Made by a program: the position numbers and the translations under genes. Below, piece after piece: positions 3,931-16,637 of a stretch of 24,601 nt of DNA; the first letter of the stretch is position 1; each line of letters opens with the position of its first letter. The notes under the pieces were generated by a model, which saw only the letters and a list, made by a program, of their open reading frames with translations, did not search any database and was not told where the DNA came from. The stretch is from the NCBI GenBank assembly GCA_030638935.1, contig DAOWDR010000532.1:1-24601 (forward strand), in the 5' to 3' direction. Origin of the DNA: Desulfobacteraceae bacterium (GTDB lineage Bacteria; Desulfobacterota; Desulfobacteria; Desulfobacterales; Desulfobacteraceae).

Positions 3931-4263
3931 TTACAATGCCCCATAGATCATATCATTGTATCCAATAAAAAAGGCATTCTTTGTCTTTACGGCCGGTGCC
4001 CGAAGATTTCCAGACCGACCCATGGAGGCCTTTAAAATTTCTTCCTTGTGTTCCTCATCAGGCCCAAGGCAAAGAACTTTTTTGCCCTTTCCAATATAGA
4101 CCCTCGGCCTTGTCTGCATAAATTCCCAGGCCATTTCCCGGTCAATTTTCTCTTTTCTGGCATCGGATATATCCTTGGGCCGTATCCCCTTTTGCTCAAA
4201 ATACATTTGAGCTTTTTTACAGGATACTCAGCCTTTCCGAATATAGGCCCATTCAATGTCCAT
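3931..4263 (-). CDS. ArsC/Spx-like thioredoxin-fold selenoprotein, 110 aa, Sec at codon 12 (UxxC)
   Basis: AGGAGG, 4 nt, then ATG at 4263: MDIEWAYIRKG-TGA(4230-4228)-VSCKKAQMYFEQKG...GRSGNLRAP.... The ORF track starts at 4206, which cuts off the redox motif and has no RBS. A SECIS-like hairpin follows the TGA. Confidence 0.88.
4182..4227 (-). promoter_or_regulatory. Candidate bacterial SECIS element
   Basis: mRNA directly after UGA: GUAUCC-UGUAAAAAA-GCUCAAA-UGUAU-UUUGAGC-AAAAGG-GGAUAC. This gives a 6-bp lower stem, a 7-bp upper stem and a 5-nt loop with G in second position. Confidence 0.75.
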
Positions 4264-4346: not shown

Positions 4347-5912
4347 CTAACACTTTCGTTTTCGCCCATGGAGGGTAAATGTTTTTACCACAAACTCCCT
4401 GAATTCCCATATATAATCAATGGTTTTCTGGTTCATGGAATGGGCCTTGCTATCCCAGTTCACATAAATCATTGAGATGATCTTCCGATCAACAAATACA
4501 GGAAAAACGGCAAAACCAGAAGATTGCTCATTTTTTCCAAACCGTTCCATATACCAGGAAGGGATCTTTTTTTTGTATTTTTTCCCGTGGATGTCACTGA
4601 CAATGGTATCACTTTTTTTCAGAACAGCGCTGTTAAATATATCAAGGCTGTTCTCCAGTTTGAATGTAAAGCCCTTAAGCAATTCCTGTGAATTATCCCC
4701 TTTGGCAAACCGGGCATCCATTGTCTGGGTTTCCTTTTTTTTAATGGCAATGCAGACCTGGTTGAAATAAAAACTTTGAAAAAGGATACCCACGATATTG
4801 GTAAAAATTTCATGGATACTGAGTTGGCTGTCCAGATTTTCCTGTAATTGTTTTAAACCTGCATTGAGGCTGTCCATATTTTTTATACCCGAAGATCTTG
4901 TTGTCTTTCCTGGATCTGGATCTACATTTAGGAGGGCTGCATGTTTAATCATCTTGTCCCGGGAGGTTTTGCCCAGTTCCAAAGCCTTTGACATGCCAAT
5001 CTTCAGGATTCCTTCATATTTGCCGGTAATATCCATTACCTGTCCAATTACCTGATCATGGCCCTTGTCCAAGGGAATGTCGCACATTTCCCGGGTAAAG
5101 GCACAGGCATACCGGTGACGATTTCCTTCACTGATCCCCTCCCCCTTCACATCAAAATTTGTCACCGGCCGGGTTGCATTGACGATATTTTCCGGCAAAT
5201 GGAGTTTTAAGGCCACAAGCCTGCCCAAATCACTATAGGAAAGCCCTAGTACGGATTTTGAAGCCGCCTGCAGGGAATGCTTGCCATCATCCATGGCAAG
5301 CTCAATTTGGATATATTTATCCGGGGCAAACAATGCCACAAGGTACTCACCCAAATCATAGATCATGGCGGAAATCTGGAGAGCATCTGCATCTTCATAA
5401 CCGCCCTCAAGGGCAATCTGCCTTGCCATGATGCTCCTTTGAAGTCCTTTTAACGCTTTATCCCTTAAAATGTCGGCATTGGCAAGGCCTGTCATCATTT
5501 CATAAATCTTTAAACCGGCGGCTGCCGACCGGACCTCATCGGTGCCCAGAATGATCATGGCCTCTGAAATGGTTGAGATCCCTTTGCTTGAAAAATGGCG
5601 ATAAAAAGATGAATTTACCAATTTAAGGACCTTTGAGGTTAATGCCATATCCTTTAGGATCACATCTGCGATATCGTTGGCCGAGGAATATTTCATGGTC
5701 AAGATTTTATTCACATTGCTGACCTGGCGAGAAAAGGACAAAAACGAATCCCGGGCCATCATTTTTTTAAAAATTGAATTTACAAAAAGGCTGTAATCAG
5801 AAGCGTCTGACTGAGTTTCCGCAACATCTTTGTCCCCGGCTTCCCGGCCCAGGGCCGGCAGGCAAATCGCATCCAATTCTATACCCGCATGGGGGGTATC
5901 CGTTGCATCCAT
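4347..5912 (-). CDS. HDOD-domain signalling protein with a C-terminal GAF-like domain, 521 aa
   Basis: HDOD signature IADVILKDMALTSKVLKLVNSSFY...STISEAMIILG...AMIYDLG. C-terminal GAF-like part ends FAVFPVFVDRKIISMIYVNWD. GGAG lies upstream of the ATG at 5912; the track start (TTG 5933) is less likely. Confidence 0.85.
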   Translation of the reverse strand: MDATDTPHAGIELDAICLPALGREAGDKDVAETQSDASDYSLFVNSIFKKMMARDSFLSFSRQVSNVNKILTMKYSSANDIADVILKDMALTSKVLKLVNSSFYRHFSSKGISTISEAMIILGTDEVRSAAAGLKIYEMMTGLANADILRDKALKGLQRSIMARQIALEGGYEDADALQISAMIYDLGEYLVALFAPDKYIQIELAMDDGKHSLQAASKSVLGLSYSDLGRLVALKLHLPENIVNATRPVTNFDVKGEGISEGNRHRYACAFTREMCDIPLDKGHDQVIGQVMDITGKYEGILKIGMSKALELGKTSRDKMIKHAALLNVDPDPGKTTRSSGIKNMDSLNAGLKQLQENLDSQLSIHEIFTNIVGILFQSFYFNQVCIAIKKKETQTMDARFAKGDNSQELLKGFTFKLENSLDIFNSAVLKKSDTIVSDIHGKKYKKKIPSWYMERFGKNEQSSGFAVFPVFVDRKIISMIYVNWDSKAHSMNQKTIDYIWEFREFVVKTFTLHGRKRKC

Positions 5913-5974
5913 TGGTACTCCATTCAAAAACAAGCTTGATAATAGTGATGATTAACCCATATAATACATTCAGC

Positions 5975-6003
5975 ATAATAGACTTTATACTTAAGATTTT
6001 CAA
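5975..6003 (-). promoter_or_regulatory. Candidate sigma70 promoter for the HDOD gene
   Basis: TTGAAA (6003-5998), 17 bp spacer, TATTAT (5980-5975) on the minus strand. Confidence 0.55.
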
Positions 6004-6027
6004 TTAAATTTTATAACAGGCCGGAAC

Positions 6028-8040
6028 ATGCACCAGGAAAAAAATACCGTAGATAAACTGGAGAAACGAATTTTATATCTAAGGTCCTGTTTTTCCAACT
6101 ATAATATAGTTCGGATGCGGGAGGCATTGCGATATCTTGCCGGCCCGAAACTTGAACTATTCATAAAAATTCCCTTTCTCATCCATGTCAATCTGCCTGA
6201 GTTTCCGGGATACATTGATTCAGATATAACCGCCCACGGAATTCACAATTTTGAACAATCCGGATTTTATAAAGAAGTTCTCAAACAAAGCCTGTTACCG
6301 GGAAATGCCATTTCCCGGTATACGGCCATTGATCCTTGTGTACAAGGATTTTATCACATCGGCAGTCTGGGTACCTTTACCCAGTCGGCAGGATCTGATT
6401 TCGACTATTGGGTAATCATTGACAAGAAAAAATTTTCCGACATGCGGTATTACAACCTTGAAAAGAAACTGGACCACATCCTTAAATTCAGCAGGGAAAG
6501 CTATGACCAGGAAGTAACTTTTTTTATCATGGATCAGGAAGATATCCAAAAAAATTGTTATGCCCGGTTTAATGAACAAGAAACCCTGACGGCTCCAAAA
6601 ATTTTTTTAAAGGAAGAATTTTATAGAACCTTTTTAATGATTGCCGGAAAAATCCCTTTCTGGACCATACTGCCAAGCCAAAGTGATACCGATACCTATA
6701 CTGCCCTTGTTAAAAATATCTCATCCATTGCCCAGTTAAAACCCATTTCCAGAGAATTTATTGACCTGGGAAACATTGAAATTCCCGGACCCCAGGATAT
6801 TATAAAAGGTCTTTTATGGCATATCTGCAAAGCCCGGTTTGATCCGGTCAAGGCCTTGATAAAGGCATCCATGATTTTTTCAACCGGCTTTGATCAGCCG
6901 GATCAAACAGGGCTTTTATGCGATGACATCAAGACAAGATATGCTAAAGCCGGCATTGATGATTACCACGCCGACCCCTATAAAATGCTTTTTGACCGGA
7001 TACTTAGGTTTCACCAAAAGCAGGATACCAAGGGACTGAACCTGATAAAAAATGCTATATTTTTCAGGCTCTGCGGATATCCAAAGGTATCGCTGCCGGA
7101 AATTGGTTCTCCCAAACGACAATTGCTGGACTGGTATATCCGAAACTGGAATCTCAACCAGTCCCAGGTAAACAAACTGCTCTCCTACATCACATGGGCA
7201 GAGCCGGAAAAGCTGCTCCTTGAAAAAACCATCATCACCCGTCTGGCATTTATGCACCAGACGATTCAAAACAAATATCCCTCCACCCACGGAGATGAGG
7301 TCACTGACACGGAAAAAAGAAATTTTAAAATTCTCGTCCATAAAACAGAAGAACGTTTGAACAAGGCCAAAGAAAAAATCCCTGAATGTTCCACCTATTT
7401 GAAACGACAAAAATTTCAATTATTTCTTCTCCAGCAAAAACGGGCCGGCGTCTGGCATTTGTCCTGTTATTTAAACCGAGAGCCCCGGCCCCGAAAACTC
7501 CATGGGGCCCCGTCTCTTTTAGGCCTGTTGGGATGGATTCTTGAAAACCAGCTCTATGAACGATCCCAAAGCTCAATGAAAATTGATGTTCCTTTACACC
7601 TGTTTGAAAGCCATGCCCGTCCTGTGGACCCGGACAAATTGTATCTGCCTCTTCAGCCGCTCAAACCCTTATCCGATGATATGTTTGAAGATTCCCCGGC
7701 CTGGTCAAAATTGATAATTCTTCTGGTATACCCGGAAAAAAAAGGAAAAAACAAGTTGGAAAGGGCGGAATTTCTGGCCTTAAACACCTGGGGGGAATTA
7801 TTTTTGGACACATTGACCCTTGACACAGACAAAAACATAGGGGATAGGTATGAAGATATCGCAATGAAAATTAATGGATACAAGGAAACCGGCCTGCGGT
7901 TATATTTTTTCCAATTGGCGAAGAAACATGATCCAGAGGCCGTATTTGAAATCAAGCAACACCTGGCTGCCGGATCTGTGAAGCAATATGGCCGTTCCGT
8001 TGGCTCTGGCAGAAACCGTCCAATGCTGGACAGATTATAG
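6028..8040 (+). CDS. cyaA: Class I adenylate cyclase
   Basis: GFYHIGSLGTFTQSAGSDFDYW (nucleotidyltransferase G-S...SDxDxW), KEEFYRT...AGKIPFW and PVKALIKA match class I AC motifs; 670 aa. Confidence 0.85.
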   Translation: MHQEKNTVDKLEKRILYLRSCFSNYNIVRMREALRYLAGPKLELFIKIPFLIHVNLPEFPGYIDSDITAHGIHNFEQSGFYKEVLKQSLLPGNAISRYTAIDPCVQGFYHIGSLGTFTQSAGSDFDYWVIIDKKKFSDMRYYNLEKKLDHILKFSRESYDQEVTFFIMDQEDIQKNCYARFNEQETLTAPKIFLKEEFYRTFLMIAGKIPFWTILPSQSDTDTYTALVKNISSIAQLKPISREFIDLGNIEIPGPQDIIKGLLWHICKARFDPVKALIKASMIFSTGFDQPDQTGLLCDDIKTRYAKAGIDDYHADPYKMLFDRILRFHQKQDTKGLNLIKNAIFFRLCGYPKVSLPEIGSPKRQLLDWYIRNWNLNQSQVNKLLSYITWAEPEKLLLEKTIITRLAFMHQTIQNKYPSTHGDEVTDTEKRNFKILVHKTEERLNKAKEKIPECSTYLKRQKFQLFLLQQKRAGVWHLSCYLNREPRPRKLHGAPSLLGLLGWILENQLYERSQSSMKIDVPLHLFESHARPVDPDKLYLPLQPLKPLSDDMFEDSPAWSKLIILLVYPEKKGKNKLERAEFLALNTWGELFLDTLTLDTDKNIGDRYEDIAMKINGYKETGLRLYFFQLAKKHDPEAVFEIKQHLAAGSVKQYGRSVGSGRNRPMLDRL

Positions 8041-8048
8041 GAAAACTT

Positions 8049-9059
8049 ATGCAAGATAAATCCATACTGGTGGTCAGTGAAAAGGAAAAAGAAAGAATAG
8101 ATCTGACCCGAACTTTGAAAAAAATCGGATATGAAAAAATACTGTCTGTCCAAGGCGGAGGAAATGCATGGGCTTTTTTAAAATCAAAAAAAATCGACTG
8201 TGTCATCTCTTCCTATGACATGGAAGAGATGTCCGGGCTCGCCCTGTTAAAAATCCTTAGAAGGGAAGAATCCGTGGCGGATTTGCCCTTTTTTCTCACC
8301 AATGATGCCTTTACCAAAATCAAGGTGATACGGGCGGGACAAATCGGTGTGACCGGACTTTTTGTGATTCCCTATAATTGGAAAGGGATGAAAGCCAAAC
8401 TTTCCATGGCCATTGAAAAAATCAAGGACCCAGTGGTCGTCCAGGTGGAAGAAAGTTTGGAAAAGGGAATTGACCTCATTGAAAAACAGGAATTCGCCAA
8501 GGCCCTGGAAGTATTTAAATCCCTTGTCAACCAAAAAGAAAATCCTGAATATTATTTTAATATTGGATATATAAAGACCTCCCAGGGAGAGCATAGTGAG
8601 GCCATTGAAGCCTTTTCCAAGGCCACCCAGCTGGACAGGCTTTTCGTCAAAGCCTATGAAGCCATGGGAAGGGCCTACAAGGCACTTGGCGATGCTAAAA
8701 AATCGGAAGAATGCCTCCAGGTTGCAGCTGAAATTTACATGGACACGGACAAACTAGGCTCAGCCGAAGAGATTCTCAATGAAGTTCTTGAAGCCGGATC
8801 AAATTCCCTAAACGTATTCAACACCCTGGGGGTACTCCACCGAAAAAAAGGGGATGTGGAACAGGCCTTGCGCCAATACAAAAAAGCATTGAAAGTCCAC
8901 CCGGACGAACCCTATATTTATTACAATATAGGCCGGCTATACCTGGACATGAAAAATACAAACAAAGCCAAAGTCTATTTCCAGTCGGCCCTGGACAAGG
9001 ACCATGGATTTGAGGAAGCCAAACAGGTAATCAAGGCCATTGACCTGGGGCTTGTGTGA
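8049..9059 (+). CDS. Atypical (pseudo) receiver domain plus TPR repeats
   Basis: N-terminal ~125 aa has a CheY-like pattern (ILVV, DCVIS..DM.EMSGL.LL, GVTGLFVIP). The C-terminus has about 6 TPRs (e.g. VFNTLGVLHRKKGDVEQALRQYKKALKVHP). Starts 8 nt after the cyaA stop. Confidence 0.85.
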   Translation: MQDKSILVVSEKEKERIDLTRTLKKIGYEKILSVQGGGNAWAFLKSKKIDCVISSYDMEEMSGLALLKILRREESVADLPFFLTNDAFTKIKVIRAGQIGVTGLFVIPYNWKGMKAKLSMAIEKIKDPVVVQVEESLEKGIDLIEKQEFAKALEVFKSLVNQKENPEYYFNIGYIKTSQGEHSEAIEAFSKATQLDRLFVKAYEAMGRAYKALGDAKKSEECLQVAAEIYMDTDKLGSAEEILNEVLEAGSNSLNVFNTLGVLHRKKGDVEQALRQYKKALKVHPDEPYIYYNIGRLYLDMKNTNKAKVYFQSALDKDHGFEEAKQVIKAIDLGLV

Positions 9060-9733: not shown

Positions 9734-10198
9734 TTAATTAACAATATGAACCCCGATCCCTCCCTCAACATGCCGGGTAACTCTTTTTGAAATGCTTCTG
9801 CTAAAATAATTGATAATATTACCCGGATTTCGATTCAACACAACCACGTCGAATTTTCCTCTCTTCCAAAGCCGGATGATATCATCGGCAATATCCTGCC
9901 GTACAGCCAGGTATAGGCAGTGGATATGGTCGCCGTTAAACCCGTAATTCATAAGCGCTTGCCTGGCTGCTTCCAAGGCTTGTTTCTCCTCATCCTGCCT
10001 CAATCTAAGGTAGGAGGTGTTGCGATTCACTTTGTCCATGATGGGGCTATTGCGGGTATCAATTTCCGGAACAGGAGTAAAGGCGTGAAACAAAGTAATT
10101 TCAACCTCTTTTCTTTTCCCATACCTCTGACCGACAAATTCAATGGCAATTTCATCATTCACCGTAAAATTATAGGGTATCAGTATATTAATCGGCAT
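9734..10198 (-). CDS. Universal stress protein family, 154 aa
   Basis: NILIPYNFT...ITLFHAF...DIADDIIRL...FDVVVL...SISKRV is the USP pattern; AGGAGG lies upstream of the ATG at 10198. Confidence 0.75.
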   Translation of the reverse strand: MPINILIPYNFTVNDEIAIEFVGQRYGKRKEVEITLFHAFTPVPEIDTRNSPIMDKVNRNTSYLRLRQDEEKQALEAARQALMNYGFNGDHIHCLYLAVRQDIADDIIRLWKRGKFDVVVLNRNPGNIINYFSRSISKRVTRHVEGGIGVHIVN

Positions 10199-10634
10199 CC
10201 TGACCTCCTTTTCATAAAAATTTAAAATTGTTGCGGCAATGCCAAAAGACAAGTTCGTTCTGTGTCAACGGGAAATCAAACGCATATTAGAATGGAGCCG
10301 TAAGAATGATATAAAATCAGTGGGTCGTGATAAGATTAGATCCATATAACCTGGATACTATAAAATATACCAGAGACACCCTAAGTTGTAAATTGATTTA
10401 CCTGTATTTTTTTATCTTTGTCCCGGAATTTGTCCCTGGGCAGACATTTATCCCAGAATATTTTTATTATGATTTGACAATAAATCAGACAAATTGATAA
10501 ACTGGCACAAGGAATAATGCGAAATTGAAACTGAGTGGTTAATTTTTCGATTCGGTACTTTTCGATTCTACTTGCAGCAAGTTCTGTCAATTTTTTTCAC
10601 AATTAATTGTTTTTATTAAAAAAAGGAGTTAATT

Positions 10635-10970: not shown

Positions 10971-10980
10971 TTTAATTAAC

Positions 10981-11301
10981 TCATTTATTCTCGGGACTTT
11001 TTGCACACTCTGTGGAAGTATCCCCGGACCCGTCGTCAGAGGTTAGGCCAAGATGTTGTTTCACCTGGATGATATCGTTGACTTCCACCATCCAGGTAGC
11101 ATCCCCTGATAGCACCACCGGAACAAAGGATAGAACGACTTCGCACAAGCCACTCTGATCCTTTTTATATACGATTTTTGCTTCCTTGGGCAGGGAAACA
11201 TGTTGTGAATGCCAATCCATATCAACATGGGTGCAAACAGAGGCAGCAGAAACATCAGAACTTAATACCAGCAACAAAAAAAATACCAAAATCCTTCTCA
11301 T
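10981..11301 (-). CDS. Small secreted protein, possibly a DsbC N-terminal-like domain
   Basis: Signal-peptide-like MRRILVFFLLLVLSSDVSA; AGAGGA upstream; GLCEVVLS...VVLSGDATWMV resembles the DsbC/G dimerisation domain. The family call is weak. Confidence 0.5.
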   Translation of the reverse strand: MRRILVFFLLLVLSSDVSAASVCTHVDMDWHSQHVSLPKEAKIVYKKDQSGLCEVVLSFVPVVLSGDATWMVEVNDIIQVKQHLGLTSDDGSGDTSTECAKSPENK

Positions 11302-11481
11302 CTTCGATTGTCCTCTTCACAGGTTATTTCATCGATTCATCAAATTTTTTCGGGGCAATTCAATCCAAGAAATATTCATTTGTTAACGATTATAGAAGGG
11401 GATCACCTTACCTGCTACAGGGAGGATCAGGAGGAAGGCAACCAGAATGTCCTGATCAAAATGCAGGGCATGCACAAATAC

Positions 11482-11931: not shown

Positions 11932-11982
11932 GCACTAAATTAATTAAATTTTTAATTGCCGCATGAAGAAAAGACTCAATGC

Positions 11983-12012
11983 TTGACGCATGTAAACCCA
12001 ATGGTCTATACT
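11983..12012 (+). promoter_or_regulatory. Candidate sigma70 promoter of the sucrose operon
   Basis: TTGACG (11983-11988), 18 bp spacer, TATACT (12007-12012). Confidence 0.55.
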
Positions 12013-12099
12013 TACCCTGATAATAATATTCTTTCAAAATTATTTACCCCAAGAAAGAATCGAATCCAAAATATTCTTTCTTGCATACTGAAGATCACC

Positions 12100-12993
12100 A
12101 TGATTTTAGTGATAGGCGAAATTTTATTTGACCTTTTCCCGACCTATAAACGAATCGGTGGTGCCCCCTTTAATTTTGCCTTTCACCTGAAAAAGCTGGG
12201 GCTCCCGGTCCGATTTGTTTCCAGGGTCGGAAATGATATCCATGGAAATCAAATCCTGGATTTTCTGGAACTTAACCAATTTGATACCAAGGATATCCAA
12301 AGGGACCCTGAACATGCTACCGGAACCGTCGCCATTGACTTGGATAAAGATGGGAATCATACCTTTTCCATAATTTCCGACACCGCCTATGACCATATTG
12401 CCTTTGATAAAAACTTGGAGGCTCTCTGTCACAGGCCCTGGGATCTTCTCTATTTCGGAACCCTGATCCAGCGCACCCCAAATGGAGCCAAGCTGGTTCA
12501 AAAACTGCTTTCAAAAAAATCGAGAAAAGCAGTGGGATTCTGCGATATCAACCTGAGGCCTGATTGTTATACAAGGGCTACCATTGAGGCATCCCTTAAG
12601 GCTGCAGATATTCTCAAGCTCAACCAGGAGGAACTTGAAAAAATATCCGGTGATGAAAAAAAAGACCAAACCCTTGGGAAACAAGTGAGCAGACTGATGA
12701 CAACCCATTCTCTGGACCTTGTGATTCTTACCTTGGGAGAACAGGGCAGCAAGTGGTTCACAAAAACAACCTCAAAACAAAGATCAGCAACCAGGAACCA
12801 GCCTATAATCGATACTGTGGGAGCAGGAGATGCCTATGCAGCCATGGCGGTTGCCGGACTCCTTTCCGGTCTTCCCAATACAGCTGCCATGGAGCTTGCA
12901 CGAAAATTTGCAGGTAATATCTGCGGTTTCAAAGGCGCCCTACCGGACAACAATGATATTTACCAAAAATTCAAAGGGAGGCTTAAACGATAA
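12100..12993 (+). CDS. PfkB-family carbohydrate kinase, probably fructokinase, 297 aa
   Basis: MILVIGEILFD, GGAPFNFA...VSRVGND, DINLRP and DTVGAGDAY motifs. The family N-terminus fixes the start at 12100, not 11956. Substrate inferred from gene context. Confidence 0.9.
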   Translation: MILVIGEILFDLFPTYKRIGGAPFNFAFHLKKLGLPVRFVSRVGNDIHGNQILDFLELNQFDTKDIQRDPEHATGTVAIDLDKDGNHTFSIISDTAYDHIAFDKNLEALCHRPWDLLYFGTLIQRTPNGAKLVQKLLSKKSRKAVGFCDINLRPDCYTRATIEASLKAADILKLNQEELEKISGDEKKDQTLGKQVSRLMTTHSLDLVILTLGEQGSKWFTKTTSKQRSATRNQPIIDTVGAGDAYAAMAVAGLLSGLPNTAAMELARKFAGNICGFKGALPDNNDIYQKFKGRLKR

Positions 12994-15182
12994 TGGATAC
13001 CGGCAAAGGGCTTCATATTCAGATGTTCAGTATCCATGGGCTGCTCAGGGCCGAAAATATGGAACTAGGCCATGATGCCGACACAGGCGGCCAGATTAAG
13101 TATGTGGTTGAACTCTGCAATGCCCTGTCCCAAAACAGCAAAGTTGAACAAGTGGACCTTTTTACACGCCTGATCCGGGACAAATCCTGCTCTGACGATT
13201 ATAGTCTCCCCACGGAACAAATCAATAACAAGTTCCGCATTATCAGGATTCAATGCGGGGGGCGCAAATATATAAGAAAGGAATTACTCTGGCCCTTTTT
13301 GGACGAATTTGTTGACAAAACCATCAAATTTATTCAACAGGAAAAAAAAGTTCCGGATCTTGTCCACGGTCATTACCCGGATGCAGGTTATGTTAGCCGG
13401 GAGTTGGCCCGGTTTTTCGGGATACCCTTTGTGTATACGGGCCATTCCCTGGGAAAGTCCAAAAAAAAACAACTCCTGAACCAGGGAATGGATATCAATG
13501 ATATTAATAAAAAGCTAAAGATAGATCATCGGATTGATATGGAGGAAGTTATCCTCAAATCCGTTGATTTGATCATCACCAGCACCAACCAGGAAATTGA
13601 AGGCCAGTACGGTTTGTACCGCAATCGGACCCTGCCGAAATACCAGGTAATTCCTCCGGGAATAGATATTGAAAAGTTTCATCCCTATTACCACAACACC
13701 TTTTCCAGCAACAACAAAAAAGAGGAGGCTTTATTTGCCAGTGCCTCGGTCACCCGGGAACTGGACCGTTTTTTTCAACACCCGGACAAACCCATAATCC
13801 TGGCATTAAGCCGTCCGGACAAACGGAAAAATATAGGTGGCCTTATCAAGGCCTATGGCGAGGATAATGAACTTCAGGCCATGGCCAACCTGGCGGTTTT
13901 TGCAGGTATCAGAAAGGACATTTCCCTAAAAGAGGACAATGAACGGGATGTGCTGACCCGGATGCTTCTATTGATGGACAAGCATAACCTCTATGGAAAA
14001 ATGGCCATCCCCAAAAAACATGATTTTGAGCATGAAGTACCGGAACTCTATCGTATTGCCGCCAAAAAAAGAGGTGTCTTTGTCAACCCGGCCCTGACAG
14101 AGCCCTTTGGTCTTACCCTTCTTGAATCCCTTGCCTGTGGACTGCCCATTGTTTCCACCCATGACGGCGGGCCAAAGGATATTATTTCCAACTGCCAGGG
14201 AGGGGTTCTGGTGGACCCCAAGGACTCTGCGGCCATTGCCCAGGCCATCAAGGATATCCTTGCACACCAGGACCTGTGGAATGAGTATTCAAAAAACGGA
14301 ATCATGAACACCCGGAAGTTTTATACCTGGGAAAATCATGTAAAAGACTATGTAACTGCGATTGAGCGTCTCTGCCGGGAATACGGATCATCGGACATCC
14401 AGGTCAGGAAACCCAGCCACAGTATAGGATATCGGCTTTCAGATCTGGACCACATGCTGATCACAGATATTGATCACACCCTGTTGGGCGGGGACAAAAA
14501 AGAGCTTGCCGACCTGATGGAACTTTTGGAAAAAAACCGAAACCACCTGGGATTTGGTGTGGCCACGGGCAGGAGTTTGGAATCTGCCCAAAAGGTTCTA
14601 AAGGCCCATGGCGTAATGACACCGGATATTATTATTTCCTGTGTGGGCAGTCAGATCTATTATGGGAACGCCTTTTACCGCGACAAGGGATGGGAGACCC
14701 ATATCTCAAAAAATTGGAAGCCCGGCCCCATGAGAGCCTGCCTTGAAAAAATTGATTTTATTCGCCCCCAGAAAAAATTGTTCCAGGGACCTTATAAACT
14801 CAGTTATTATATGGCGCCGGGAAAAGATCGTTTGGCTCGGATCCACCATGTTCTGACCCAAAATCGCTGTCTTTACACCCTTATTTATTCCCATGGCAAA
14901 TATCTTGACCTGCTGCCATACCGGGCATCCAAGGGAAAAGCCATCCGATACCTAAGCTACAAATGGGAAATCCCCCTTAAAAATTTTCTGGTCTGCGGTG
15001 ATTCAGGCAATGACGAAGAAATGCTACGGGGCGATCCCTGCGGAGTGGTGGTGGGCAATTACAGCCCGGAACTTGCTGTCTTAAAATCCAGTAAAAAGGT
15101 CTATTTTGCCGACCAATCCTTTGCCAAGGGCATTGGCGAAGGAATTTCCCATTATAATTTCATCAATCAAGCAAAGGGATAA
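12993..15182 (+). CDS. sps: Sucrose-phosphate synthase with a C-terminal HAD sucrose-phosphatase domain
   Basis: GT4: SIHGL...LGHDADTGGQIKYV, HGHYPDAG, FVYTGHSLG, EPFGLTLLE. HAD: TDIDHT, ATGRS, SKGKAI, GDSGND. TAATG overlap with the kinase gene. Confidence 0.93.
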   Translation: MDTGKGLHIQMFSIHGLLRAENMELGHDADTGGQIKYVVELCNALSQNSKVEQVDLFTRLIRDKSCSDDYSLPTEQINNKFRIIRIQCGGRKYIRKELLWPFLDEFVDKTIKFIQQEKKVPDLVHGHYPDAGYVSRELARFFGIPFVYTGHSLGKSKKKQLLNQGMDINDINKKLKIDHRIDMEEVILKSVDLIITSTNQEIEGQYGLYRNRTLPKYQVIPPGIDIEKFHPYYHNTFSSNNKKEEALFASASVTRELDRFFQHPDKPIILALSRPDKRKNIGGLIKAYGEDNELQAMANLAVFAGIRKDISLKEDNERDVLTRMLLLMDKHNLYGKMAIPKKHDFEHEVPELYRIAAKKRGVFVNPALTEPFGLTLLESLACGLPIVSTHDGGPKDIISNCQGGVLVDPKDSAAIAQAIKDILAHQDLWNEYSKNGIMNTRKFYTWENHVKDYVTAIERLCREYGSSDIQVRKPSHSIGYRLSDLDHMLITDIDHTLLGGDKKELADLMELLEKNRNHLGFGVATGRSLESAQKVLKAHGVMTPDIIISCVGSQIYYGNAFYRDKGWETHISKNWKPGPMRACLEKIDFIRPQKKLFQGPYKLSYYMAPGKDRLARIHHVLTQNRCLYTLIYSHGKYLDLLPYRASKGKAIRYLSYKWEIPLKNFLVCGDSGNDEEMLRGDPCGVVVGNYSPELAVLKSSKKVYFADQSFAKGIGEGISHYNFINQAKG

Positions 15183-15185
15183 ATC

Positions 15186-16637
15186 ATGGCACTTAAAAAT
15201 AAAATCCAGTTGATTACCTACCCTGACAGTATGGGCGCCAACCTTCCTGAACTGCACTACGCACTTAGAAAATACTTTTTAAAGGCCATCGGGGGAGTCC
15301 ATTTGCTGCCTTTTTACCCCTCTTCCTCGGACAGGGGATTTGCCCCCAAAACCTATGATGAGGTGGACCCGGCCTTTGGCACCTGGGATGATGTGGAAAA
15401 GATAGGGCAGGATTTTGATCTCATCATTGATTTCATGGTCAACCATATTTCCAGACAGTCTGTTTTTTTCCAGGATTATGTTGAAAAGGGTCCGGATAGC
15501 GAATATGCAGACATGTTCCTAACCTTTGAAAAACTTGCACCCAACAGCTTTATCCCTGACGAGGACCTGGAAAAAGTCTATACAAGGAAGCCACGCCCGC
15601 CCTATCAGCAGCTTGAGCGGCCCAACGGTACCCTGGAAAAAATCTGGTGCACCTTTGATTACGAGCAGATAGACCTGGACTATAATTCCCCAAAAACACT
15701 GGAAGTGATGCGCAAATTTCTCATACGCCTGGCCAGGAATCGCCCCAAGATGATCCGCCTGGATGCCATTGCATATACCACAATAGAATTGGGAACCAAT
15801 TGTTTTTTCCTGGAACCCCAGATCTGGAAAATTTTAGAGTGGTTTAACGATTATGCATCTGCCTTTGACACGGAAATTCTGCCCGAGGTGCATGAACATT
15901 ACACATACCAGTTCAAACTGGCAAAGAAGGGATATTGGTGCTATGATTTTTCCCTGCCCATGCTGGTACTCCACTGCCTGTATATGAAAACCACCAGACG
16001 GTTAAAATCCTGGCTGAACAAATGTCCCCGCAAACAGATCACTACCCTGGACACCCATGACGGCATAGGGGTGGTGGATGTAACGGAGTTATTAAACCAG
16101 AAGGAGATCGACCAGACCATAGACGAACTTTATAAGAATGGTTCCAATGTCAAAAGAACCTATTCCGGGCCGGAATATCAGAACCTGGATGTCTACCAGG
16201 TCAACTGCACCTACTACTCTGCCCTGGGGTGTGATGATGACGCCTATATTACTTCACGAACCATCCAATTTTTTACTCCTGGTATACCCCAGGTCTATTA
16301 TGTGGGCCTTCTGGCCGGAGAAAATGATATTGAGCTGGTTGAAAAAACAAGACTTGGCAGAAATATCAACCGACATAATTATACCCTGGAAGAGATCAAG
16401 GAAGATATTCAAAGGCCTGTGGTGCAACGACTGCTTCGCCTCATGGAATTCAGGAACTCCTATCCGGCCTTTAACGGTGAATTCACTGTCATGAAATCCA
16501 CAAACAAACAATTAATACTGGACTGGACCCATAAAAAATACACAGCCACTGTTTTTATTGATGTTGATGCCCCGGGTGACACCAAGATCACCTATACCGA
16601 CCCTGTGGCATCCCGGGTAGTCGACTTTATTGTCTGA
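15186..16637 (+). CDS. gtfA: GH13_18 sucrose phosphorylase
   Basis: IQLITYPDS, GGVHLLPFYP, DFMVNH, RLDAIAY (nucleophile), ILPEVHEH (acid/base), TLDTHDGIG, and acceptor loop NLDVYQVNCTYYSAL. Confidence 0.88.
   Translation: MALKNKIQLITYPDSMGANLPELHYALRKYFLKAIGGVHLLPFYPSSSDRGFAPKTYDEVDPAFGTWDDVEKIGQDFDLIIDFMVNHISRQSVFFQDYVEKGPDSEYADMFLTFEKLAPNSFIPDEDLEKVYTRKPRPPYQQLERPNGTLEKIWCTFDYEQIDLDYNSPKTLEVMRKFLIRLARNRPKMIRLDAIAYTTIELGTNCFFLEPQIWKILEWFNDYASAFDTEILPEVHEHYTYQFKLAKKGYWCYDFSLPMLVLHCLYMKTTRRLKSWLNKCPRKQITTLDTHDGIGVVDVTELLNQKEIDQTIDELYKNGSNVKRTYSGPEYQNLDVYQVNCTYYSALGCDDDAYITSRTIQFFTPGIPQVYYVGLLAGENDIELVEKTRLGRNINRHNYTLEEIKEDIQRPVVQRLLRLMEFRNSYPAFNGEFTVMKSTNKQLILDWTHKKYTATVFIDVDAPGDTKITYTDPVASRVVDFIV

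Follow-up and report, generated by a model that had tools for sequence, protein, structure and literature searches.

A UGA-interrupted gene of a Desulfobacteraceae bacterium is a probable selenoprotein gene of the ArsC-related NF041106 family

Results

An intact gene around a 91-codon reading frame

On the minus strand of contig DAOWDR010000532.1 (assembly GCA_030638935.1, Desulfobacteraceae bacterium), the locus running from position 4263 to position 3931 is very probably an intact, translated selenoprotein gene of the NF041106 family, in which SelB, tRNA-Sec and an adjoining stem-loop bring about the decoding of UGA codon 12 as selenocysteine (Sec). All positions refer to the 24,601-nt stretch of this contig that was analysed as a whole, hereafter called the window.

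The features of the locus are collected in Table 1. The 11 sense codons preceding the TGA encode MDIEWAYIRKG; directly 3' of the TGA the frame continues with GTA TCC TGT (V-S-C) and then with K-K-A. A preliminary description of this DNA had named the AGGAGG, the 4-nt spacer, the ATG at 4263, the 11 codons, the TGA at 4230-4228 and the V-S-C triplet, and each of these elements is indeed found where it had been placed. The mechanical list of open reading frames contains just the 91-aa piece (4206 to 3931). The ATG chosen as its start, the codon of Met20, lies within the upper hairpin described below, where its first base closes the 5' arm and its other two open the loop. A scan for sigma-70 promoters found none upstream of the selenoprotein gene.

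Table 1. Features of the selenoprotein locus (positions in the window)
Feature	Position	Strand	Basis and remarks
Shine-Dalgarno AGGAGG	4273-4268	-	read from the sequence; 4-nt spacer ATGT to the start
Complete selenoprotein gene, 110 codons plus TAA, Sec at codon 12	3931..4263	-	translation with TGA = U
Start codon ATG	4263-4261	-	
In-frame TGA, Sec12, opening residue of the U-V-S-C redox motif	4228..4230	-	
Cys15 codon TGT, presumed resolving cysteine of UxxC	4219..4221	-	translation; Spx alignment
Two-tier SECIS-like stem-loop immediately 3' of the UGA	4182..4227	-	RNA folding
Internal ATG (Met20), start of the 91-aa ORF chosen by the gene caller	4204..4206	-	mechanical ORF list
G82-R-S-G-N-L-R-A-P90 codons, loop ending in the presumed cis Pro	3994..4020	-	alignment and model
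Stop codon TAA	3933-3931	-	
Terminator-like hairpin overlapping the stop codon	3924..3945	-	consensus scan only, weak evidence

The in-frame TGA is conserved and corresponds to cysteine

Whole genomes were scanned with the NF041106 profile, stops being read through and the cut-off of the profile being applied. Two sets were covered, a search of 41 relatives and a sample of 401 genomes from the phylum, with the source genome counted in both. The gene scored over the cut-off in 10 of the 41 genomes and in 21 of the 401, source genome included, and every one of these matches (10/10 and 21/21) has exactly one in-frame TGA, as is expected if the codon is read as Sec, the reading put forward in the preliminary description. 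Altogether, about 30 other genomes carry the gene over the cut-off and all of them keep the single in-frame TGA. A decaying gene would not show such retention, which argues against decay. In the Sec-form copies that were extracted from these other genomes the TGA is codon 12 in each case (24/24).

The segment ahead of the TGA bears the marks of translated sequence. Comparison of 12 copies from different genera showed that the W-A-Y-[ILM]-R-K-G stretch is conserved with synonymous variation, the number of codons in use ranging from 2 to 5 per position (5 for Arg, 3 for Ala and 3 for Gly). The ATG stands 11 codons 5' of the TGA in 11 of the 12 copies, and a GGAG-type ribosome site precedes it in most of the orthologues compared.

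Cysteine aligns with the TGA, a correspondence on which the Sec reading had been made to depend. The homologues, whose names as given by their sources refer to Desulfobacter and Desulfobacterales, include a cluster of Desulfobacter proteins, named "ArsC family (seleno)protein" by NCBI, that have Cys at the position of Sec. One of these, P0054, was checked at the nucleotide level: under translation table 11 its codon 12 is TGC, in the sequence GGC TGC ACC TCC TGT. A different residue, Trp, occupies this position in the full-length database entries P0018, P0019, P0024-P0026, P0031 and P0070. At the P0018 locus, which lies on a short contig, the "Trp" codon is a TGA translated under code 4; the other entries with Trp share the pattern.

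Within the window TGA terminates 3 of the 17 genes, and none of the other 16 genes has an in-frame TGA. TGA is thus an ordinary stop elsewhere in the window, indicating that it is not reassigned in the source genome. Three further frames of the window that are interrupted by TGA were considered as selenoprotein candidates and rejected. In two of them (1600-2073 and 9737-10357) the TGA lies 5' of the likely start; the third (10976-11383) is not gene-like.

A hairpin follows the UGA

The RNA immediately 3' of the UGA is predicted to form a two-tier structure with a folding energy of -20.1 kcal/mol (z -2.8). Its lower stem pairs residues 4227-4221 with residues 4188-4182. The upper tier, between 4212 and 4194, is a perfect 7-bp stem topped by the loop UGUAU; it begins 16 nt 3' of the UGA and presents its G-containing loop at +23. 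In the bacterial SECIS model, a stem-loop directly downstream of the UGA carries a G in a small apical loop. We take the position and the loop type of the predicted hairpin to fit this model.

In a comparison of 10 close relatives, the helix proved to be 84% paired, with compensatory changes from AU to GC. RNAalifold, applied to 25 Sec forms aligned in codon register, yielded no consensus structure because the register of the hairpin shifts between lineages; a search for hairpins sequence by sequence, with codon shuffles as controls, was used in its place. In most of the 25 Sec forms a perfect hairpin of at least 5 bp was found; its loop begins 21-24 nt 3' of the UGA and has G at its first or second position. 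The stems themselves differ, three distinct sequences being found across lineages (CUCAAA/UUUGAG, CCAGG/CCUGG and GCACAG/CUGUGC). The best hairpin has a mean energy of -5.8 kcal/mol, against -1.9 in the codon shuffles, and not one of the 40 sets of shuffles attains the observed value, for a set of sequences that are related to one another and a region that also codes for the conserved A-Q-x-[FL] motif. Under the simple criterion of a perfect hairpin of at least 5 bp, a few orthologues (for example L022 and L026) have none. The RNA of the Cys form has a hairpin too, though a different one; the structure by itself therefore does not discriminate between the two forms, and the Cys form is uninformative as a negative control. 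An Rfam scan of the whole window matched no family.

Selenocysteine machinery of the source genome

The source assembly encodes selB (345.7 bits), selD (372.3 bits) and a tRNA-Sec (73.2 bits) whose anticodon was identified as TCA by ARAGORN. The selD gene (G000:C471:7558-8481, L008) holds one in-frame TGA, suggesting that it is itself probably a selenoprotein gene. The assembly consists of 756 contigs and is 84% complete, with 6% contamination; neither the TIGR00474 model nor a SelA of the same genus used as query detected selA in it. In the relatives that carry the gene, selA was recovered at about 600 bits in 5 of the 5 checked, three of them belonging to the same genus. We read the gap as a consequence of assembly incompleteness. 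Of the Sec machinery that the genome had been expected to possess, selB, selD and tRNA-Sec were found, and selA is the one missing item in an assembly that is 84% complete.

The protein belongs to the NF041106 family

When translated with TGA as Sec, the 110-aa product (P0001) matches the NCBIfam model NF041106, "ArsC family (seleno)protein", with 112.9 bits for a cut-off of 85. The match spans residues 3-107 of the protein and the profile from end to end (positions 1-107 of 107). The scan of the source genome with the same model, stops being read through, gave 105.1 bits and 1 TGA. Scores with other models are low. The Pfam Glutaredoxin model PF00462 matches residues 7-58 only, with 22.1 bits, below its cut-off of 22.9, and the Spx/MgsR model TIGR01617 gives 21.9 bits for a cut-off of 75.05. 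Pfam ArsC (PF03960) and arsenate reductase TIGR00014 are absent among the matches of P0001 at E <= 1. A scan for PF03960 proteins found nothing in the source genome and four relatives, and comparison of the family alignment with E. coli ArsC by hhalign detected no relation (probability 0.06%).

Residues G82, G85, N86, L87, R88, A89 and P90 are invariant in the 34 homologues. The redox motif is less uniform: orthologues generally have U-x-[ST]-C, the Desulfobacter forms have C-x-S-C, and two orthologues (L025:1525-1587 in G038 and L049:1729-1791 in G167) have U-x-S-S, Cys15 being replaced by Ser. The resolving Cys is thus not universal in the family.

The predicted structure has the ArsC/Spx fold

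An AlphaFold2 model built with the 34 homologues was obtained with a pLDDT of 93.7 and a pTM of 0.85. In this model, strand beta1 (residues 3-8) leads to helix 1 (13-24) and strand beta2 (32-34), which are followed by an insert made of a helix (42-49), a beta-hairpin (54-66) and a second helix (70-80). The G-N-L-R-A-P loop (85-90) comes next, then two strands between residues 91 and 100, the first of which (91-94) starts directly after Pro90, and a final helix. Sec12 stands just ahead of helix 1, with Cys15 in the first turn of this helix.

The top-ranked structures in a Foldseek search of the PDB were Spx, YffB and ArsC-related proteins. With VIA-align, these aligned over 86-96 of the 110 residues with Z values of 9.2-7.3; NrdH, glutaredoxins and the N-terminal domains of GSTs gave Z values of at most 7.5 across about 72 residues. 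When PDB sequences were searched with a profile, only Spx was retrieved, and weakly (E 0.1). In the Spx alignment, S-C-K-K-A is paired with S-C-R-K-A, G-N-L-R-A-P with G-L-L-R-R-P, and G-F-N-E with G-Y-N-E. The model and this alignment bear out the earlier assignment of the gene to the ArsC/Spx thioredoxin fold, with the TGA at the CxxC position and the conserved loop at the cis-Pro position. By sequence the NF041106 family lies outside Pfam ArsC; within the ArsC/Spx fold group it forms a remote branch.

Genomic surroundings

Within the genus the gene is flanked by the gene of an HDOD-domain protein and, in convergent orientation, that of alanine dehydrogenase. Comparison of about 30 loci revealed no conserved neighbourhood outside the genus. 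The neighbours found elsewhere are housekeeping or transport genes that bear no relation to these; they encode an aminotransferase, GyrA, NFACT, DUF815, MMPL and GATase proteins, a Mg-chelatase-like protein, UbiD, a citrate-transporter family protein and an HI0933-like flavoprotein. No arsR, arsB or acr3 gene stands beside the gene in the window or at about 20 other loci. The neighbourhood gives no functional clue. An HI0933-like FAD protein adjoins the ArsC-like gene at two loci (L019:1973-3172 and L029:1925-3499), one with the Sec and one with the Cys form; this adjacency could be a matter of coincidence or of shared ancestry.

The window contains other gene groups. A signalling cluster (4347-9059) adjoins the gene and comprises the HDOD-domain protein (5933-4347, minus strand), a class-I, CyaA-type adenylate cyclase (6028-8040, plus strand) and a response-regulator/TPR protein (8049-9059, plus strand); a GAF protein (9771-9148, minus strand) follows. 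Further along, a sucrose-type cluster (11956-16637) includes a PfkB-family kinase, a fused sucrose-phosphate synthase/phosphatase-like protein with GT-B and S6PP domains (12993-15182) and an alpha-amylase-family protein (15186-16637). The interval of about 1 kb between 10970 and 11956 has no long ORF and nothing unusual. It contains a 67-aa protein judged by eye to be of the cold-shock type (11774-11571, minus strand) and a 106-aa ORF whose N-terminus resembles a signal peptide (11301-10981, minus strand).

Discussion

Proposed mechanism and function

The data suggest the following scheme. During translation, SelB and tRNA-Sec would recognise the stem-loop that starts directly after the UGA, with its apical loop about 23 nt downstream, and codon 12 would be decoded as Sec. 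The product is a thioredoxin-fold protein of 110 residues, very probably cytoplasmic. Its Sec12 directly precedes the Cys15-bearing helix 1 (starting at residue 13) and faces the loop with the invariant Arg88-Ala89-Pro90 on the opposite side. The selenolate of Sec12 may then attack an oxidised substrate, be it a disulfide, a mixed disulfide or an oxyanion; Cys15 would resolve the adduct, forming a selenenylsulfide with Sec12, and a reductant of the thioredoxin or glutaredoxin type would regenerate the protein. Thus, by analogy with thioredoxin-fold proteins that have UxxC or CxxC motifs, the most likely role is that of a selenol/thiol oxidoreductase with Sec12 as the nucleophile. The analysis shows the structure of the gene, its family membership, the conserved recoding signals, the correspondence of Cys and Sec, and the fold; catalysis, electron donor and substrate are inferred, the catalytic scheme by analogy. 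Our literature search found a measurement of selenium incorporation, expression or activity for no member of NF041106.

As to the substrate, we tentatively consider that the family may be a separate, stand-alone selenoenzyme acting on an anionic compound, distinct from both arsenate reductases and Spx-like regulators, a reading to which we attach rather low confidence. Several features are compatible with it: the invariant basic segments A-R/K-K-E-K-I (35-40), K-G-K-K (59-62) and G-N-L-R-A-P (85-90), the beta-hairpin in the modelled inserted subdomain, the strong preference for Sec over Cys (about 30/30 sampled genomes), and the fact that no canonical PF03960 protein was found in the source genome or in the four relatives searched.

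That the protein is a genuine R773/ArsC-type arsenate reductase, in which an adduct between Sec12 and arsenate would be resolved by glutathione/glutaredoxin or by Cys15, is unlikely. It would agree with a fold nearest to the ArsC/Spx/YffB group, Vibrio and Yersinia arsenate reductase structures included (Z 7.7), and with the alignment of Sec12 to the first Cys in the CxxC motif of Spx. The name "arsenate reductase-like" is used in surveys (PMC13188914, PMC2398784), a permease of the ArsP_1 type adjoins one orthologue (L019), and the UxxS motif of two orthologues has been reported for another selenoprotein family, one of the Pfam ArsC type (PMC1088965). Against it count the results of the profile searches, in which neither PF03960 nor TIGR00014 appeared at E <= 1, PF03960 was nil in the genome and four relatives, and E. 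coli ArsC gave nothing; against it, too, are the neighbours, which vary by lineage and do not include adjoining arsR, arsB or acr3 in the window or at about 20 loci. The proline loop offers a further point. R773-type arsenate reductase has an oxyanion-binding arginine triad (Arg60, Arg94 and Arg107); in the NF041106 proteins an invariant Ala precedes the invariant Pro where Spx has Arg.

We regard as very improbable that the protein is a redox-sensing regulator of the Spx/MgsR kind, which would bind RNA polymerase and use the selenenylsulfide of U-x-x-C as a switch instead of a catalytic centre. The best matches among PDB sequences are Spx proteins, at the weak E value of 0.1, several Spx structures rank among the top fold matches, and TIGR01617 finds the protein weakly at 21.9 bits. 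This score is nevertheless far under the cut-off of 75; the protein is also about 20 residues shorter than Spx and has the modelled beta-hairpin (54-66) in its insert. Moreover, Spx is a regulator of Firmicutes, and Sec is nearly always used at catalytic sites.

It is scarcely credible that the TGA is a real stop, leaving a decayed gene or a 91-residue product started at ATG 4206, or that it is read as Trp or Gly under an alternative code. In favour of this reading, gene callers produce exactly the 91-aa ORF, some database entries have W at this position, and the assembly yielded no selA. Against it, the start and the ribosome site are fixed and the 11 codons ahead of the TGA are constrained at the protein level (12 copies, different genera); the TGA is kept in about 30/30 other genomes; the genome encodes tRNA-Sec, selB and selD; Cys, and not Trp or Gly, is the residue at the homologous position; the W entries reflect TGA under code 4 (P0018 being the one looked up); and TGA terminates 3 of the 17 genes of the window and occurs inside no other gene.

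Annotation and literature

The reading of the locus as a selenoprotein gene amounts to an annotation correction. The public protein collection represents it by P0002, a 91-residue fragment from the source contig that is devoid of the active site, and most database relatives are shortened likewise. Thus, the top matches among AlphaFold DB clusters are N-terminally shortened homologues that start at residue 13 or 32, one of them named "Arsenate reductase", indicating that the family is widely mis-called. Truncated annotation of selenoproteins has been documented as a general problem (PMC13326102). The preliminary description had foreseen that standard annotation would give a 91-aa fragment or a pseudogene. 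The public record has the fragment; this need not hold for every pipeline, since a curated model exists and a pipeline using NF041106 would name the gene.

The novelty of the find had been overrated, as the family already has its curated model in NCBIfam, NF041106. Earlier computational reports of ArsC-like selenoproteins with no established function, mentioned in the preliminary description, do exist, and the family has been known from such surveys since 2006-2008. The first of them (PMC1794560, 2006) described "ArsC-like" selenoproteins in Desulfotalea psychrophila and, from Desulfuromonas acetoxidans, a "distant ArsC homolog"; the D. psychrophila protein may belong to NF041106. An analysis of GOS data (PMC2398784, 2008) counted 42 Sec and 238 Cys forms of "Arsenate reductase 2 (cd03032, UxxC)", and a 2026 review (PMC13188914) lists "Arsenate reductase-like protein, UxxC" as a selenoprotein. 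A biochemical study of any NF041106 member would be new. For such work the window gives no special handle on function, its neighbours being uninformative and its features ordinary.

Comparison with known systems

Glutaredoxins and NrdH-redoxins (PF00462) have in common with the protein a beta-alpha-beta-alpha-beta-beta-alpha core and an N-terminal motif of the dithiol type, with structural Z values of up to 7.5 over about 72 residues. They differ in that the present protein has an extra subdomain of about 35 residues (roughly 42-80), and they align over fewer residues than the ArsC/Spx proteins do.

The arsenate reductases of the R773/E. coli type (PF03960, TIGR00014) and YffB belong to the same fold class, with Z values of 7.5-7.7 to the Vibrio and Yersinia ArsC structures and to YffB, and ArsC has its nucleophile at the equivalent N-terminal position. 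In contrast to these reductases, the present protein does not detectably match PF03960, TIGR00014 or E. coli ArsC in sequence, and its gene does not stand in an ars operon context.

The Spx/MgsR proteins (TIGR01617; 1Z3E, 3GFK, 3IHQ) share with it a thioredoxin-like fold with an inserted subdomain, a redox pair at the start of helix 1 (S-C-K-K-A here, S-C-R-K-A in Spx), a G-x-L-R-x-P loop before strand 3 and G-[FY]-N after strand 4. Unlike them, the protein described here has Sec in place of the first Cys and Ala in place of the Arg before Pro, is about 20 residues shorter, carries a beta-hairpin in the insert of its model and scores 21.9 bits for a cut-off of 75.

With the members of NF041106 (ArsC_rel_Se_1), finally, the protein shares length, the UxxC motif at positions 12-15, the invariant motifs and the phylum, and nothing of substance sets it apart, this copy being publicly recorded as 91 aa. 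The gene is an ordinary representative of a selenoprotein family that had been catalogued before.
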